Shown: positions 4,010 through 61,756 of the stretch, piece by piece
How the letters are laid out: the number at the start of each line of letters is the position of its first letter
Position numbering within the stretch: the first letter of the stretch is position 1
Origin: Octopus vulgaris
Taxonomy: Eukaryota
NCBI GenBank assembly: GCA_951406725.2
Contig: OX597816.1
Location: 54,312,001-54,376,000 of the forward strand
DNA: 64,000 bases
Direction of reading: 5' to 3'
Notes under the pieces: model-generated
Told to the model about the DNA's origin: nothing
The model's database searches: none
Seen by the model: only the letters and a program-made list of their open reading frames with translations
Made by a program: the position numbers and the translations under genes

Positions 4010-5566
<1,557 letters not shown>

Positions 5567-5574
5567 TATATATG

Positions 5575-5688
<114 letters not shown>

Positions 5689-5718
5689 AATATATATGTA
5701 TATATGTATACATATGCA

Positions 5719-6104
5719 CTAGTTGCAATACCCGGCGTTGCCCGAGTTAATGTTTCAGAGAACAGTTACATCGCAAAGGTCTTTATTTAACTTATAGTAA
5801 ATCTTTTCGAAAAAATACTCAGCGAAAGTTTGGACTAAGAACACTTTGTATACCTTTTTCTTTTTCTTTTACGAATATATTTTTGTTGGATAACCAAATT
5901 CCAAGCATATGCAAGTTCAACACCTTAAATGTTTGTACACAAATTCTAATCTTTTGAATCTCTTTTCAGTTTCTGCTTAAACATAATCCTTACCCTAACT
6001 CGAAATTGAAATCCTAAGTGGTAACACGAAAGCCTATCGTCGAATGCTAGCCCTCAGCGGAGCGAGAAAGAGCGTGATATGAAAGGCGTGTGTGTTTGGA
6101 GAGA

Positions 6105-28042: not shown

Positions 28043-28074
<32 letters not shown>

Positions 28075-28101
28075 TTTATTTTAAGCAGCAGAAAATTCAA
28101 C

Positions 28102-28149
28102 AAAATCTGTTACTCTGAGTTTCTCGTTGCCGTTCATCAGACAGTTTTT
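28102..28149 (-). ncRNA. Type-I hammerhead motif in PLE terminus (left arm)
   Basis: Reverse complement of 31939-31986. Confidence 0.7.
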
Positions 28150-29152
28150 GCTAGAATGGAACATATATATTAATTCAATCTATACTCTTACAAACGCTAC
28201 ACCTTTAAAAAGAAATGGACTTGTTTGATTGGCCCTTTAGAAAAAACGGTCAATCTTCGAGCGATAAACAAAAAGGTCAAAAATATATGTATATATATAT
28301 AAAAAACTTATAAAAATTATAAAATCCGAGGAAAAAACCGAGGAAAAAACCTATTGCCGTTAATGAAGACAGTACAAATTAATGCATAGAAATTAAACCT
28401 GTTATAAATACTGCAATACATATTTATATTAAAATCCACATATATATATCAACATACACAAAAGGATGCGCGTAAACGCCATACATACATATACAGACGT
28501 ATGAATATGAATCTAAATTATACACATAAAAGCATGTGTACATATATTCACGCAAACCGTCTCGCACGCAAGCTAAAATTCATCTATGTAGCAATTCTCA
28601 TATACTGAGCAAGGAGGGGGAACGAAAGAAAGGGAAAGAGAGAAAAAAGAAATGAAGGAGGGGTGGGGAAAACTTGTAGCGATATTATTGGCATTTATAG
28701 AGGCCAGTATACATACACAAGTTTGAATTGATACATATACATACCGTCGTGTGTATGCGTGCTTACGCACAAGCATACTTTCACTTACACATACACAGAT
28801 ACGCATGCTTACAAATATATATGCTTTGCTATATACAAACTTATATAAACATTCTAAATTTGACAACATTGCTTTTTTTAAAAAAAACATTGCTTTTAAA
28901 AAATGGGTGCATTAATAAAAATATATACGAAAGACATATAAAATAAAATATAACATCCTATTTTGGGTCATTTATAAATAATCAAGGTAATATAAATAAT
29001 CAAGGTAATCTTATGCAATACAATAACATGAAAACAAAGTTTGTAGGTTTTTCCTAATATATATGTAGAAACAATAAGACTTTGCTATATGTCCGTCGTA
29101 TCGCTCAAGAGTCAAAATCAAAATCAAAAAATCAAAATACAAAATATATACT

Positions 29153-29935
29153 CTATCCATATGGTATATTTATATTCGACATTTTAAATTTAGCCTTGTG
29201 CCTACATAAGTTCATTAATTCACTTCTTTGATTCAAAGAATTATTGTCTTTGAATAATATGTGCATTTTTTCTAATAAGCAGAGCCTGCACTTGAAATTA
29301 TATTTGTAAGCTCCATGCCTGTATGGTGCCGCCCTGTCCAGAATGCTCCATGTCACGTTGAAAGGTGGGGCTTCCTTTTCTTTTAGTTCCCAGACATATT
29401 TTGCTAGGCTGGTTTTCTTTCTGTTCTCTGGGTATTTAAAAGAATTCTTATGAGAATAAAATCTTGTTTTAAATGAATTTTCTGAAGCCCCTGTGTATGT
29501 CTTGTATTCCGATGAGCCTTCCACTTGCACCTTGGCTCTATAAACTACTCCTTTCACTAGACATTTCCCTTCTAACGGACAGGAGCTTTCGTTTTTGAAA
29601 TTACATTTCTTAATGGGCTCGGCACCATGTCTAATCTCAATTAGCTTCCTATTATGTTGGCTAATGTAAGAGGCGAAATTTCTGCAACAAGAATAGCTAA
29701 CCTTCAGGGTTCTTCTATTAAATATTCTGTAGAATTTATGACCCTGCCTAAAATGCTTAGAGACTAATCTCAAAAATTCTTTACCTATATTAGTCTTTAC
29801 GGCCAAATTGAAAGCCGGGTTGAACCACAAAACTTTCCTGGTCCTAGTTCTTCGTGCAGCATTATTATTAGCATTAAGCTGGTTGAACTGGATCTTCTCC
29901 GAGAATCCACTATTCTTTAATGCGCTATCGTAATA
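29153..29935 (-). CDS. PLE linker plus GIY-YIG endonuclease (inverted, more truncated copy)
   Basis: Same protein as 30154-30936 except CNC becomes CNF. Confidence 0.9.
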   Translation of the reverse strand, partial: YYDSALKNSGFSEKIQFNQLNANNNAARRTRTRKVLWFNPAFNLAVKTNIGKEFLRLVSKHFRQGHKFYRIFNRRTLKVSYSCCRNFASYISQHNRKLIEIRHGAEPIKKCNFKNESSCPLEGKCLVKGVVYRAKVQVEGSSEYKTYTGASENSFKTRFYSHKNSFKYPENRKKTSLAKYVWELKEKEAPPFNVTWSILDRAAPYRHGAYKYNFKCRLCLLEKMHILFKDNNSLNQRSELMNLCRHKAKFKMSNINIPYG

Positions 29936-29937
29936 AG

Positions 29938-30936
29938 ATAGATACTAACCTGAATAGTGTAGATTTTTTAGACGTAAATTTTAATGTAAGATCGGATAGA
30001 TTTAAACCTTTCCGTAAGCCCAATGAAAAGCTATCGTATATTAGCAAAGATTCGAACCATCCACCAGTTATCCTTAGCAACTTAGTCAGCAATGTAGGTA
30101 GAAGAATATCTTCAATTTCTTCGGACGAGGCAGCATTCCATAATGCTGCACCTTATTACGATAGCGCATTAAAGAATAGTGGATTCTCGGAGAAGATCCA
30201 GTTCAACCAGCTTAATGCTAATAATAATGCTGCACGAAGAACTAGGACCAGGAAAGTTTTGTGGTTCAACCCGGCTTTCAATTTGGCCGTAAAGACTAAT
30301 ATAGGTAAAGAATTTTTGAGATTAGTCTCTAAGCATTTTAGGCAGGGTCATAAATTCTACAGAATATTTAATAGAAGAACCCTGAAGGTTAGCTATTCTT
30401 GTTGCAGAAATTTCGCCTCTTACATTAGCCAACATAATAGGAAGCTAATTGAGATTAGACATGGTGCCGAGCCCATTAAGAAATGTAATTGCAAAAACGA
30501 AAGCTCCTGTCCGTTAGAAGGGAAATGTCTAGTGAAAGGAGTAGTTTATAGAGCCAAGGTGCAAGTGGAAGGCTCATCGGAATACAAGACATACACAGGG
30601 GCTTCAGAAAATTCATTTAAAACAAGATTTTATTCTCATAAGAATTCTTTTAAATACCCAGAGAACAGAAAGAAAACCAGCCTAGCAAAATATGTCTGGG
30701 AACTAAAAGAAAAGGAAGCCCCACCTTTCAACGTGACATGGAGCATTCTGGACAGGGCGGCACCATACAGGCATGGAGCTTACAAATATAATTTCAAGTG
30801 CAGGCTCTGCTTATTAGAAAAAATGCACATATTATTCAAAGACAATAATTCTTTGAATCAAAGAAGTGAATTAATGAACTTATGTAGGCACAAGGCTAAA
30901 TTTAAAATGTCGAATATAAATATACCATATGGATAG
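29938..30936 (+). CDS. PLE polyprotein C-terminus: end of RT/thumb, Cys-rich linker, GIY-YIG endonuclease (5'-truncated, no native start)
   Basis: VDFLDV and FRKPNEKLSYISKDSNHPP (PLE RT end), WFNPAFN, CNC-x5-CPLEGKC, GVVY...YTG...FKTRFYSH (GIY-YIG equivalent), and CRLCLLEK...NQRSE...CRHK. Confidence 0.92.
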   Translation: MDTNLNSVDFLDVNFNVRSDRFKPFRKPNEKLSYISKDSNHPPVILSNLVSNVGRRISSISSDEAAFHNAAPYYDSALKNSGFSEKIQFNQLNANNNAARRTRTRKVLWFNPAFNLAVKTNIGKEFLRLVSKHFRQGHKFYRIFNRRTLKVSYSCCRNFASYISQHNRKLIEIRHGAEPIKKCNCKNESSCPLEGKCLVKGVVYRAKVQVEGSSEYKTYTGASENSFKTRFYSHKNSFKYPENRKKTSLAKYVWELKEKEAPPFNVTWSILDRAAPYRHGAYKYNFKCRLCLLEKMHILFKDNNSLNQRSELMNLCRHKAKFKMSNINIPYG

Positions 30937-31938
30937 AGTATATATTTTGTATTTTGATTTTTTGATTTTGATTTTGACTCTTGAGCGATACGACGGACAT
31001 ATAGCAAAGTCTTATTGTTTCTACATATATATTAGGAAAAACCTACAAACTTTGTTTTCATGTTATTGTATTGCATAAGATTACCTTGATTATTTATATT
31101 ACCTTGATTATTTATAAATGACCCAAAATAGGATGTTATATTTTATTTTATATGTCTTTCGTATATATTTTTATTAATGCACCCATTTTTTAAAAGCAAT
31201 GTTTTTTTTAAAAAAAGCAATGTTGTCAAATTTAGAATGTTTATATAAGTTTGTATATAGCAAAGCATATATATTTGTAAGCATGCGTATCTGTGTATGT
31301 GTAAGTGAAAGTATGCTTGTGCGTAAGCACGCATACACACGACGGTATGTATATGTATCAATTCAAACTTGTGTATGTATACTGGCCTCTATAAATGCCA
31401 ATAATATCGCTACAAGTTTTCCCCACCCCTCCTTCATTTCTTTTTCTCTCTTTCCCTTTCTTTCGTTCCCCCTCCTTGCTCAGTATATGAGAATTGCTAC
31501 ATAGATGAATTTTAGCTTGCGTGCGAGACGGTTTGCGTGAATATATGTACACATGCTTTTATGTGTATAATTTAGATTCATATTCATACGTCTGTATATG
31601 TATGTATGGCGTTTACGCGCATCCTTTTGTGTATGTTGATATATATATGTGGATTTTAATATAAATATGTATTGCAGTATTTATAACAGGTTTAATTTCT
31701 ATGCATTAATTTGTACTGTCTTCATTAACGGCAATAGGTTTTTTCCTCGGTTTTTTCCTCGGATTTTATAATTTTTATAAGTTTTTTATATATATATACA
31801 TATATTTTTGACCTTTTTGTTTATCGCTCGAAGATTGACCGTTTTTTCTAAAGGGCCAATCAAACAAGTCCATTTCTTTTTAAAGGTGTAGCGTTTGTAA
31901 GAGTATAGATTGAATTAATATATATGTTCCATTCTAGC

Positions 31939-31986
31939 AAAAACTGTCTGATGAACGGCAACGAGAAACTCAGAGTAACAGATTTT
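31939..31986 (+). ncRNA. Type-I hammerhead motif in PLE terminus (right arm)
   Basis: AAAACUGU-CUGAUGA-ACG(GCAA)CGA-GAA-ACUC(A)GAGU-A|ACAGAUUUU. The 1-nt stem-III loop implies dimeric folding. Confidence 0.7.
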
Positions 31987-32083
31987 GTTGAATTTTCTGC
32001 TGCTTAAAATAAAGCATATTACTCTACCACTGGTATTTGAGTACTCTTTTTTCCACCTTGTTTCACATTTATGTGTTTACTCC

Positions 32084-32140
<57 letters not shown>

Positions 32141-53029: not shown

Positions 53030-53167
53030 GGGGAAGAGCAGTTAAAGCCAAACACCATCGTGTTGAACGGCAGTTGTTTTTGACATTAAAAATAATTTCC
53101 GTTTATTTTATTTCATTTTTATTCAACACGATGGAGTTCTTTCCCCCTGCCTCTCTCTCTCGCTCTC

Positions 53168-53249
<82 letters not shown>

Positions 53250-53465
53250 GCAATAATAATTCTCTAAATGAGATATAGACAGTAACTGCTCCATAACATA
53301 AGGGACTAAAGCCATCTGAATATGGCTAGGGACAGGGCAGGGTGGTGGGGGTGTTACTGTTGCATTTAGCCCCAGGCGAACATCGACGTCGCCAGATAGG
53401 CTTGACACCATCACGGTGTCCTTTAACCTGCAAAGGGAGATAATTCACCGATGAAGCGGAAACCA

Positions 53466-53511
53466 CACACGGACCATGGTTTCAAGGTGTATTGCCTATC
53501 ATCAACGTGTG
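53466..53511 (-). ncRNA. Type-I hammerhead (inverted unit)
   Basis: Exact reverse complement of 53592-53637. Confidence 0.82.
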
Positions 53512-53591
53512 GTAGGCCCCCGCTTCCTCGACGAAAATCTATATATGAATATCCTGCAGAGTGAGATTTCGTCGAGGAAGCGGGGGCCTAC

Positions 53592-53637
53592 CACACGTTG
53601 ATGATAGGCAATACACCTTGAAACCATGGTCCGTGTG
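53592..53637 (+). ncRNA. Type-I hammerhead (unit 1), U3 variant
   Basis: CACACG-UUGAUGA-U-AGG(CAAUACA)CCU-U-GAAA-CCAUGG-UC|CGUGUG. Predicted cut after 53631. Confidence 0.85.
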
Positions 53638-53952
53638 TGGTTTCCGCTTCATCGGGGAATTATCTCCGTTTGCAGGTTAAAGGACACCGTGATGGTGTCA
53701 AGCCTATCTGGCGACGTCGTGTTCGCCTGGGGCTAAATGCAACAGTAACACCCCCACCACCCTGCCCTGTCCCTAGCCATATTCAAATGGCTTTAGTCCC
53801 TTATGTTATGGAGCAGTTACTGTCTATATCTCATTTAGAGAATTATTATTGCTGTCGAACAGATTTTCGAAATCAGCAAATGTATTTTGCTTGAAAAATC
53901 TATATATGAATATCCTGCAGAGTGAGATTTCGTCGAGGAAGCGGGGGCCTAC

Positions 53953-53998
53953 CACACGTTGATGATAGGCAATACACCTTGAAACCATGGTCCGTGTG
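53953..53998 (+). ncRNA. Type-I hammerhead (unit 2)
   Basis: Identical to unit 1. Predicted cut after 53992, which is 361 nt from the first. Confidence 0.85.
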
Positions 53999-54187
53999 TG
54001 GTTTCCGCTTCATCGGTGAATTATCTCCCTTTGCAGGTTAAAGGACACCGTGATGGTGTCAAGCCTATCTGGCGACGTCGATGTTCGCCTGGGGCTAAAT
54101 GCAACAGTAACACCCCCACCACCCTGCCCTGTCCCTAGCCATATTCAGATGGCTTTAGTCCCTTATGTTATATATATATAATTTGAT

Positions 54188-55149: not shown

Positions 55150-55562
55150 TATTTCTTTACTACCCACAAGGGGCTAAACATAGAGGGGACAAACAAGGAC
55201 AAACAAGGGGATTAAGTCGAATACATCGACCCAGTGCGAAACTGGTACTTTATTTATCGACCCCGTGAGGATGAAAGGCAAAGTCGACCTCGGCGGAATT
55301 TGAACTCAGAACGTAAGGACAGACGAAATACCTATTTCTTTACTACCCACAAGGGGCTAAACACATAGAGGACAAACAAGGACAGACAAACGGATTAAGT
55401 CGATTATATTGACCCCAGTGCGTAACAGGTACTTACTTAATCGACCCCGAAAGGATGAAAGGCAAAGTCGACCTCGGCGGAATTTGAACTCAGAACGTAT
55501 CTCAGACGAAATACGGCTACGCATTTCGCCCGGCGTGCTAACGTTTCTGCCAGCTCGCCGCC
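55150..55562 (-). mobile_element. Family C SINE with tandemly duplicated 3' part
   Basis: TATTTCTTTACTACCCACAAGGGGCTAAACA at ~55150 and ~55333. Head at ~55520-55562. Confidence 0.85.
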
Positions 55563-59493: not shown

Positions 59494-61756
59494 GAAAGAA
59501 GAAACATGGCAAAATATTTAGTAAACGAAGAAGACTTCCTATAGTATGCTGCTAGAGCAGAAGGGGTTAGCGAAAATGGACTTGAGAGTGCTCATTAATT
59601 CCGAATAAGAACAGCCAACAAGAGAGAAGAAACCCTCTTCCGTATGGAATTACATGGCCAATTTACACCGCGAAACCAAGTTAAAAGACCAGGGTGCATC
59701 ATGGAGGTTGCTCTAGAAGGGTGACCTTAAAAAAGAATACAGAAAGCCTAATACGCGCAGCCCAGGCCCAGGTATTGAATACCAACTCAGTGAAAAAGAA
59801 TATATCCCACACAAGTGCATCTCTGCAGAATGTGTGGGAAGAGGGTCGAATGTGTGACTCACATTGTTAGTGCTTGTGAAAGTCGTGATCAGAATGAGTA
59901 CAAGCGTAGACACGACAAGGTAGCCCAACACCTCCACTGGCTACTTTGCCGTAAGTATGGATATCAGGTTACGGATGTTTGGTACCAACTTACACCGGAG
60001 AAGGCAATGGACGAAAAGGGAAAGCAAAAATCCTCTGGGACTTTGAATTCCAGACAGTTAAGGAGTTAGAGAACCGAAGGCCGGTTATATCAGGTCATCC
60101 CATAAGTTCTGTCTGAATTTTGAATAAAGAAAACAAGTGATCAAATGTTATATTTAATTGAGATTTAATCATCAATGTACTTTCCCTGATTATCTATGAC
60201 TTCCTTCCATCTATTTACAAGTTTTTTAATCCCATCAATGTAAAACTCTTTTGGTTTAAAAACTCTGAAATGTTAGTTTCGACCTCCTCCTGGCTTGCGG
60301 AAGTTATGTTCCCCCAATGATTCTGTAAACTACGAAACAAATGATAGTCTGAAAGAGCAAGGTCGAGAGAATAAGGTGGATGAAGAATTTTTTCCCAACC
60401 AAGCTCTTCGATCTTCTGTGATGTGATATTTGCAGTGTGGGGTCGCGCATTGTCCTGATGAAACATCACTCCTTTTCGACTCACTAATCTTTTTTCTTCA
60501 AAGCTTGGTTCAAACGCTCTAATTGCTGATAATTGACTTGAGCATTGATTGTTGCATTAGGTGGTAACAATTCAAAGTGAATTACAGATAGAGAGAAGAA
60601 CCTTTTCCCCATGAAGTTCCCTTCTCGTTTGTGGTTGAGCTTTTCCCCTTCTATGAAGCCACTGTTTACGACGTTTAACATTTCGATAGACGATCCATTT
60701 TTCGTCACCAGTCCCAATTCTATCCACAAAGGGTGAAATTAGTTCGCGAGAATGGAGAGAAGAGCAAATGTCAACTTGGGATTTGCGGTTGCTTTCGGAC
60801 AATTCCCGAGGCACCCATTTTCCAAGTTTAGGAACCTTTCCAAGTTGTTGAAGATGACGATGAACAGTTGAACTGAGCTTTATTGCCAATTCTTCAATTG
60901 ATAATGCAGGATTTTCTTCAAGTAATGCCTCAAGGAGCTTATCATCAAACTCAACTGGACGTCCAGTTCAATCTTCGTCTTCAAGGCTGAAATCTTCATT
61001 TCTGAGTTTTGCAAACCATCTTCTGCAATTATTTCGTTCAAGCATTCTTTCCCATAAACTGAGTGTATGTTTCGTTTCGCTTCGGCAGCAGAGTTTCCTT
61101 TTTTGTACTCATAAAGCATTATGTGCCTTAAATGCTCTTTGGATACTTCCATGTTACAAAAGGTTTTAATCAAAAAAATTTTAATTCTATTATTCTGTAA
61201 AATAATATTTAATTAGCTTAAATGTACACAAATGCATAAAAATAATTTTAAATACCATTAGACATTCTAAAATACTATTAAATTTCATTTAATTTTAAAA
61301 ATGTTAAAATCGGACAGAACTCATGGGATGACCTGATAGTAACCTCTAGGAGGGACAAACAAGAGTGCCTAATAATTGATGTGGCAGAGCCAGGAGATCA
61401 ACATATTATCATGAAAGAAAGAGAAAAGTTTGATAAATATGGAGATCTGAGAATTGAGATCGCTAAGATGTGGCAGCTACGAGAGTCAAACATAAAGATT
61501 ATCCTTATTGTCATCGGAGCATTGGGTTCAATACCACCCAATCTGAAAGAAAACTGAAACATCTGAAAACCTTAGAAATACCCTACAATCTAGGTATATT
61601 GCAAAGGCCGTCATTAGTTGCGACTGCACGCATATTGTGTAAAGTACTGTCTGTCTGAGGTCCTTGTTGCGCCTTGACAATCAGTATAAAAACCCCCGGT
61701 TGACACAATATCTTCAATCAACAACCGCACGACATTGTATATTGTGCGACGTCTAT
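59494..61756 (+). mobile_element. 5'-truncated R4/Dong-type LINE inside an (AAT)n tract, split by a mariner
   Basis: LCRMCGKRVECVTHIVSAC..EYKRRHDKVAQHLHWLLC, ILWDFEFQT..RRPVI|V..CLIIDVAEPGD..KEREKFDKYGDL and IPIVIGALG. (AAT)n at 59366-59493 and from ~61757. Confidence 0.9.
60090..61336 (-). mobile_element. Full-length mariner (DD34D) transposon with frameshifted transposase
   Basis: TIRs TCAGGTCATCCCATAAGTTCTGTC and GACAGAACTCATGGGATGACCTGA, with TA TSD at 60088-89 and 61337-38. Motifs: HLRHIMLYEY, WVPREL, TGDEKW, HQDNARPH, HPPYSLDLALSDYHLF. Confidence 0.95.

Follow-up and report, generated by a model that had tools for sequence, protein, structure and literature searches.

Animal non-LTR retrozymes, in the accessible parts of two reports (PMC7229834; 10.64898/2026.07.22.740005), are non-coding tandem repeats with units of 150-450 bp, a type I hammerhead with a short palindromic stem III, a self-paired fold, a GC content below 50%, target site duplications (TSDs) longer than 4 bp and co-occurrence with Penelope-like elements (PLEs). 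The same parts of these reports give units of 350-390 bp for mussel retrozymes and describe an axolotl hammerhead, HHR_Amex2, with a U·U at the base of stem II and better cleavage as a dimer; the axolotl U·U retrozyme showed 22% monomer cleavage in an hour. The preprint (10.64898/2026.07.22.740005), in its accessible sections, derives vertebrate retrozymes from PLEs and reports that only one of nine predicted frog retrozyme dimers cleaved.

The other systems to be compared are the PLEs themselves and their dependents. Insertions of EN+ PLEs (Neptune/Nematis-like), according to the available portion of PMC8557442, combine a partial tandem with an inverted, 5'-truncated arm and bear a tail at one end only; a (TA)n target and a hammerhead upstream of the 3' end are described in the available portions of PMC8557442 and PMC4209133, the latter of which proposed in 2014 that PLEs are copied from a circular template and lists U3-A8 cores in Schistosoma PLE hammerheads. 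The Chlamys non-autonomous elements of green algae, such as MRC1, are PLE-mobilised, have pLTRs and form multicopy head-to-tail insertions, in the part of PMC8557442 that deals with them.

We analysed a locus comparable with these systems in a window of 64,000 nt of Octopus vulgaris DNA, the term window being used here for the whole stretch (Table 1). A preliminary description, made from the sequence, had claimed a 361-nt unit repeated head to tail, two identical direct hammerheads, an inverted partial copy and a setting in (TA)n. The period of 361 nt stands, but copy 2 stops at unit position 276, so that the direct arm holds 1.76 units. The two direct hammerhead motifs are indeed identical, with a 6-bp stem I, the palindrome ACCAUGGU, the GUC and the predicted cuts at the positions claimed, and (TA)n is found on both flanks. 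The inverted partial copy exists as well (0.8 unit), but it carries a full hammerhead on the minus strand, so the count of motifs is three and not two. Copy 1, the source of most of the predicted monomer, has the family-majority allele at one of the four sites at which it differs from the other copies. On the monomer rolled into a circle the longest ATG open reading frame spans 36 aa in sense and 54 aa in antisense, leaving the unit without coding capacity, and a search of the unit for a tRNA gene found none.

Table 1. Coordinates of the features of the octopus locus and of the neighbouring Penelope-like element (positions in the window; a dot denotes no strand).
Feature	Position	Strand	Remarks
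Separate 5'-truncated two-armed Penelope-like element	28074..32086	.	71-nt tail; minimal canonical-core hammerhead at ~31944-31981
Left (TA)n target tract	53230..53249	.	Preceded by (CT)n at 53151-53229
Inverted arm, unit positions 34-320	53249..53536	-	3' 'tail' end (position 320) abuts (TA)n
Third hammerhead motif, in inverted arm	53466..53511	-	U3·G8 core; reverse-complement GAAACCATGGTC at 53472; limits via alignment to copy 1
Head-to-head junction of the two arms	53530..53540	.	~6 nt of microhomology, read from the sequence
Unit copy 1	53534..53894	+	361 nt; 4 differences from copy 2 and inverted arm
Hammerhead 1	53592..53637	+	Stem I CACACG/CGUGUG, core UUGAUGA, U·U plus 3-bp stem II, GAAA, palindromic stem III; predicted cut after 53631
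Predicted cut-to-cut monomer	53632..53992	+	361 nt
44-47-nt 'tail' segment	53807..53853	+	Between the fixed 3' ends, unit 273-276 and 320
Unit copy 2, positions 1-276	53895..54171	+	3' 'core' end abuts (TA)n
Hammerhead 2	53953..53998	+	Identical to hammerhead 1; predicted cut after 53992
Right (TA)n target tract	54168..54182	.	

The 361-nt tandem unit, the type I hammerhead, the lack of an ORF, the self-paired fold and the dispersed copies uphold the assignment to a non-LTR retrozyme-type element; on architecture the octopus repeat belongs with the animal non-LTR retrozymes, a known kind, and it shares with them unit size, hammerhead type, short palindrome, GC content, TSD length and the company of PLEs. 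Elsewhere in the window, minus-strand ORF fragments at 4514-5746, 60572-60967 and 554-1054 bear what we take to be a resemblance to a CR1/L2-type reverse transcriptase, a mariner transposase and an R2/CRE-type C-terminus, respectively. Two tandem 183-bp copies of another repeat, SINE-like by appearance, lie at 55150-55514 with an 88% match, and Rfam miRNA matches in the window were set aside as due to microsatellites and the inverted repeat.

The genome searched (2.8 Gb, 227 contigs) yielded 1,337 first-look candidates for the unit, 40 of which were scored, and 1,475 copies of the exact motif pattern with a free core; extrapolation from the first 100 motifs, which correspond to 41 loci, suggests a family of ~600 loci. 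The locus is not special within this retrozyme family. A sister lineage, reached via a public contig carrying a related unit, has 640 motif matches and a ~354-nt unit that is ~70% identical, with intermediates at 84-87%. The length of the unit varies from 336 to 364 nt across relatives, with up to 10.8 units per arm, and the sister lineages (L061-L080, L127, L142-L159) have units of ~352-358 nt, stem II closed by G·U or U·U and a CUAUAG or CCUGGG palindrome. One sister-family record (L126:1-6001) consists of at least four tandem ~1,380-bp repeats, each made of a monomer, (TA)/(TG)/(CA) tracts and a LINE-like reverse-transcriptase fragment, which may reflect either DNA-level amplification or a larger hammerhead-bounded unit. 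Four runs whose RNA status is guessed gave contigs with both UU and CC forms of the core, which do not show strand, ends or circularity; contig depth in the runs guessed to be RNA was ~7-175 for the unit and ~13-94 for the PLE ORF, values that cannot rank expression. A 406-nt contig 'going back 362' was discarded as evidence of a circle, as it ends in (TA)n.

The ends of the insertions had been thought to be circularly permuted and to lie away from the cut site. The latter is borne out, with 3' ends at ~276 and ~320, and the former is not: the ends are fixed across the family. We analysed ends, alleles and breakpoints in 66 loci (40 unselected ones from chromosome 1 plus 26 best hits, the degraded L123 being excluded), and random permutation was rejected, since 93 of 118 arm 3' ends fall exactly at unit 276 or 320 and seven more at 316. 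In 48 of the 51 two-armed loci one arm ends at ~276 (core) and the other at ~320 (tail), a footprint that supports the proposed Penelope-type mobilisation; one core and one tail end are likewise found in 30 of the 32 unselected two-armed loci of chromosome 1, and the two fixed ends recur in sister lineages 70-87% identical. There is a target bias for microsatellite (TA)n, with 102 of 117 3' ends running into at least 8 nt of TA, and target duplications of 8-13 nt are seen at several non-TA sites (L012, L016, L056, L115), so that the family has both TSDs longer than 4 bp and dispersed mobile copies. The (TA)n target together with the tandem, inverted and tailed structure matches the PLE structure in the available portion of PMC8557442, and also the genome's own young PLE. 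Fixed core and tail ends and two-armed concatemers do not figure in the accessible parts of PMC7229834 and 10.64898/2026.07.22.740005. The octopus unit differs from the EN+ PLE insertions, as the available text of PMC8557442 presents them, in having no ORF, many units per arm and a full-size instead of a minimal hammerhead, and its tail of 44-47 nt compares with 30-40 nt in those PLEs and 71 nt in the neighbouring one.

That neighbour, at 28-32 kb of the window, had been put forward as a candidate helper. Its proteins comprise what we take, from motifs read by eye, to be an RT C-terminus, a Cys linker and a GIY-YIG-like EN; a Pfam search of the PLE proteins gave no match. The family is young, with 28,518 first-look candidates, many intact 727-aa frames and a ~3,360-nt unit, and the one-core-one-tail rule holds in four of four clearly two-armed examples. 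As the specific helper it finds no support: no sequence match between the unit and this PLE is detectable, and the tails differ in length. Comparison with this one PLE family found no helper with a matching tail or sequence, and by analogy the neighbouring PLE may represent the type of candidate helper, unproven as such. In this lack of a link the octopus unit differs from the 24 of 57 frog families connected to a PLE pLTR in the accessible part of 10.64898/2026.07.22.740005, and also from the Chlamys elements, most of which lack hammerheads and which have 3' sequence in common with an autonomous partner, as the available part of PMC8557442 has it. The last ~150 nt of the PLE (window 31930-32080) reach a summed contig depth in the thousands, versus tens for the ORF, in the four runs, which points to either a great number of short copies of the 3' end or a short non-autonomous derivative. 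At L119:1876-1903 there is a tiny palindromic remnant of the PLE 3' end. Both the unit and the PLE have a short hairpin 10-12 nt ahead of the tail end, a resemblance judged too weak to claim.

The hammerhead itself, which the preliminary description had called intact, has the type I architecture, with covarying stems I-III and with GAAA and GUC present, but it is not the canonical ribozyme: its core reads UUGAUGA (U3·G8) in place of CUGANGA, and positions 10.1/11.1 form a U·U. The search with hammerhead models that had been proposed as a check gave no Rfam hammerhead match at E<=10 in either the window or the locus. We read the unit's departure from the CUGANGA descriptor as a variant and not as an exclusion from the retrozymes, because variant cores are known in other hammerheads. 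U3-A8 and U10.1·U11.1 have precedents (PMC3088659), U4C in a viroid is reduced in vitro and viable in vivo, and a U3/G8 saltern hammerhead variant is in print (PMC3088659; PMC7151607), all in the available portions of these papers. In that material such variants are rare, isolated single cases; here they make up 2,152 of the 2,161 motifs counted in one clade and replace one another along its tree. A whole-genome census in one pattern frame found 1,244 CCGANGA, 566 UUGANGA, 342 UUGANAA and nine canonical CUGANGA cores, and the non-canonical core (U3·G8, U3-A8 or C3-G8 with U4C) is thus a family trait, one that separates the octopus clade from other animal non-LTR retrozymes.

Position 3 always pairs with position 8 among the counted cores (U·G, U-A or C-G), and the stem III palindrome varies as CCAUGG, CCUAGG, CCUGGG and CUAUAG among relatives. 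Decay of the present copy by a C3U change was rejected, given the 566 motifs across lineages with U3 (UUGANGA), as was a canonical master subfamily for this stem II context, in which no canonical core occurs in the exact family context. The nine canonical cores of the wider pattern comprise four inversion-junction chimeras and five lone copies, a count near the mutational expectation at rough rates (~3 from CC cores and 0.3 from UU cores). A tree of 61 representatives from 370 extracted stretches, built with the core positions masked and with a bootstrap not fully settled, gives the CC core a single origin within the U3·G8 lineage (support 100/98), and is without a root for the order of U3-A8 and U3·G8. 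The neighbouring PLE retains a canonical CUGAUGA core, which indicates that the host does not forbid it. Single changes in CUGA lead to low activity in the available part of PMC9901934, and by analogy the U3·G8 core with a U·U in stem II should lower activity.

The circular monomer is predicted to fold at -114.5 kcal/mol with 60% of its bases paired (z -4.5 against 100 dinucleotide shuffles; z -4.1 for the minus-strand monomer). The helices previously listed appear in this predicted circular fold, with one difference: where UCGGUGAA was cited, the cut-to-cut monomer has UCGGGGAA. Across 14 units, 96.7% of cells are paired and 11 of 77 pairs have changed on both sides, versus 35-48% paired in slid controls, with the structure derived from the same alignment and related rows, and with related sequences able to beat covariation shuffles without structure. 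Covariation among relatives, down to ~70% identity, extends to stem I, the long rod and the palindromic stem III, and the covarying palindrome agrees with the dimer-type stem III that had been proposed. In the direct arm, a double-hammerhead fold is predicted to be 5.8 kcal/mol better than two single hammerheads, yet it lies 7 kcal/mol above the predicted minimum, has a probability of 0-5%, and the minimum-energy fold keeps the core in inactive pairing. When the full insertion is folded as one transcript, copy 1 is predicted to pair with the inverted arm, at the expense of stem I of hammerhead 1. With hammerhead 1 masked in this way, the locus would be a poor source of circles, and it is doubtful that it releases any, even should the family as such produce them; a monomer could come only from transcripts that begin between about 53540 and 53590. 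Neither reads across GUC|CGUG nor divergent RT-PCR, both suggested as checks, can diagnose a circle, because tandem genomic copies carry the same junction.

The composition of the arms bears on the template. Three of 118 5' breakpoints lie within 5 nt of the cut site versus 3.6 expected, without any pile-up, and 21 of 72 chromosome-1 arms cross at least two cut sites; in all, arms cross up to nine. A cleaved linear monomer was rejected as template on the grounds that no ends lie at the cut and that arms cross it. Long arrays are near-clonal across both arms (L094, L108, L093), the first of these holding 12 full units over two arms with two singleton differences. Among locus-private alleles over the 66 loci, 10 are fixed, 214 singleton and three partial. 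Changes of A>G on the sense strand, with polarity set by the family-majority allele, account for 10 of 29 locus-fixed rare changes versus 12 of 185 singletons (Fisher p=1e-4), and for 9 of 24 in a hand count that drops repeats shared by sister loci; the fixed rare T>C changes number four. An edited sense RNA serving as template would be expected to leave such an excess. Arms crossing many cut sites and near-clonal arrays favour a circular template without proving it. Divergence within a locus (median 0.60%) is below that to the nearest other locus in only 33 of 61 loci, so that clonality by itself would also be compatible with a linear copy of an array already clonal. A site with both alleles occurring elsewhere is present in 25 of 66 loci, one unit of L105 carries a block of another subfamily's alleles (positions 144-167) and L125 has A/G variants common to subsets of its 12 units; the mixing in these last two loci may stem from template switching, gene conversion or mixed templates, and the present locus is mixed as well. 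The divergence figures and the mixed loci count against a clean circle model.

In the reading that we hold to be probable, a young, multi-copy repeat that codes for no protein and bears a non-canonical hammerhead was inserted here in two arms. The reverse transcriptase and endonuclease of a Penelope-like element would have placed it in a TA microsatellite, using a single RNA, probably circular, as template. A multi-unit transcript would be cut slowly by paired (double) hammerheads and the ~360-nt monomer would be closed by a host ligase; a Penelope endonuclease would nick both strands of the (TA)n target ~8-12 bp apart, the two DNA ends would prime reverse transcription of the same RNA, each from a fixed position of its own (unit ~276 or ~320), each run would go round the template for 0.2-11 units, and the two cDNAs would be joined head to head at a short microhomology. 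Alternatively, a non-autonomous, Penelope-dependent repeat could be copied from a multi-unit transcript that stays linear and uncleaved, with template jumping as an optional step, its hammerhead being slow or vestigial and no circle being needed. The scarcity of canonical cores (9 of 2,161), the lack of 5' breakpoints at the cut site and the inactive pairing of the core in the minimum-energy fold fit this account, two contigs from possible RNA runs enter (TA)n at the tail end as read-through forms would, and Chlamys non-autonomous elements without hammerheads also form head-to-tail insertions, in the available part of PMC8557442. We nevertheless think it rather unlikely: a dead motif is not expected to keep its 3-8 pair and covarying stems I and III, arms of 6-11 near-identical units flanking one junction would erode under 5' truncation unless regenerated, and private alleles are fixed or singleton, rarely partial.

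Growth of the array at the DNA level after insertion of a monomer, by slippage, unequal crossing-over or gene conversion, could produce variants such as those common to unit subsets in L125 and the L126 tandem of monomer, LINE and microsatellite DNA, and local amplification is proposed in the accessible part of 10.64898/2026.07.22.740005; as the main process it is very improbable, since it leaves unexplained the one-core-one-tail rule (48/51), the identity across inverted arms, including four private alleles fixed in both arms, and the A>G excess, and it is likely to be a secondary process only. The (TA)n target, the tail, the inversion and the fixed ends are each typical of PLEs, and fixed ends adjoining a PLE ORF had been named beforehand as the mark of ordinary pseudo-LTRs, left behind when 5' truncation removes the ORF of an autonomous Penelope element. 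Fixed ends are indeed seen, but no PLE ORF adjoins them: tblastn with the 727-aa PLE protein found no adjoining RT-GIY-YIG ORF in 117 locus records, three of which matched this query from one PLE family at two distinct places (L071/L072, L035), away from the unit. With units that abut directly for up to 11 copies without an ORF and bear no detectable similarity to the window's PLE, such an origin is scarcely credible. The term viroid-like, used in the preliminary description, is one we would drop. An RNA replicon copied RNA-to-RNA and occasionally integrated would agree with the size, the predicted branched rod fold and the absence of an ORF; by inspection the unit has no hammerhead core on its opposite strand, fixed changes favour A>G (10) over T>C (4), no observation suggests RNA-to-RNA copying, and the genome supplies sources enough in hundreds of copies with retrotransposon footprints, which makes a replicon extremely improbable.

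The mobilisation of retrozymes and the origin of the tandem, inverted and tailed Penelope insertions are both stated to be open in the available parts of the papers cited above. The octopus family makes exact predictions here: the template should be 360 nt long, priming should occur at two sites separated by 44-47 nt, each serving one target strand, and the target should be (TA)n. It offers a small substrate for an in vitro Penelope assay. The literature, covered by title and abstract and outside subscription journals, Repbase/Dfam and retrozyme supplements, returned no cephalopod retrozyme, clade-wide non-canonical core or paired PLE priming; the ~2,000 motifs found here would escape canonical descriptors and Rfam. 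We also advance tentatively, as a proposal that is somewhat unlikely to hold, that selection may keep the clade de-tuned: a slow, dimer-only ribozyme would spare the RNA circle as a Penelope template with two fixed priming sites, canonical mutants would arise and never spread, the core would move among U3-A8, U3·G8 and C3-G8 with U4C, and A-to-I edits of the circle would be passed on to the genome. PMC7229834, in its accessible part, asks how circles that carry a competent hammerhead escape renewed self-cutting, and a core weakened across a whole clade would be one testable answer to it.
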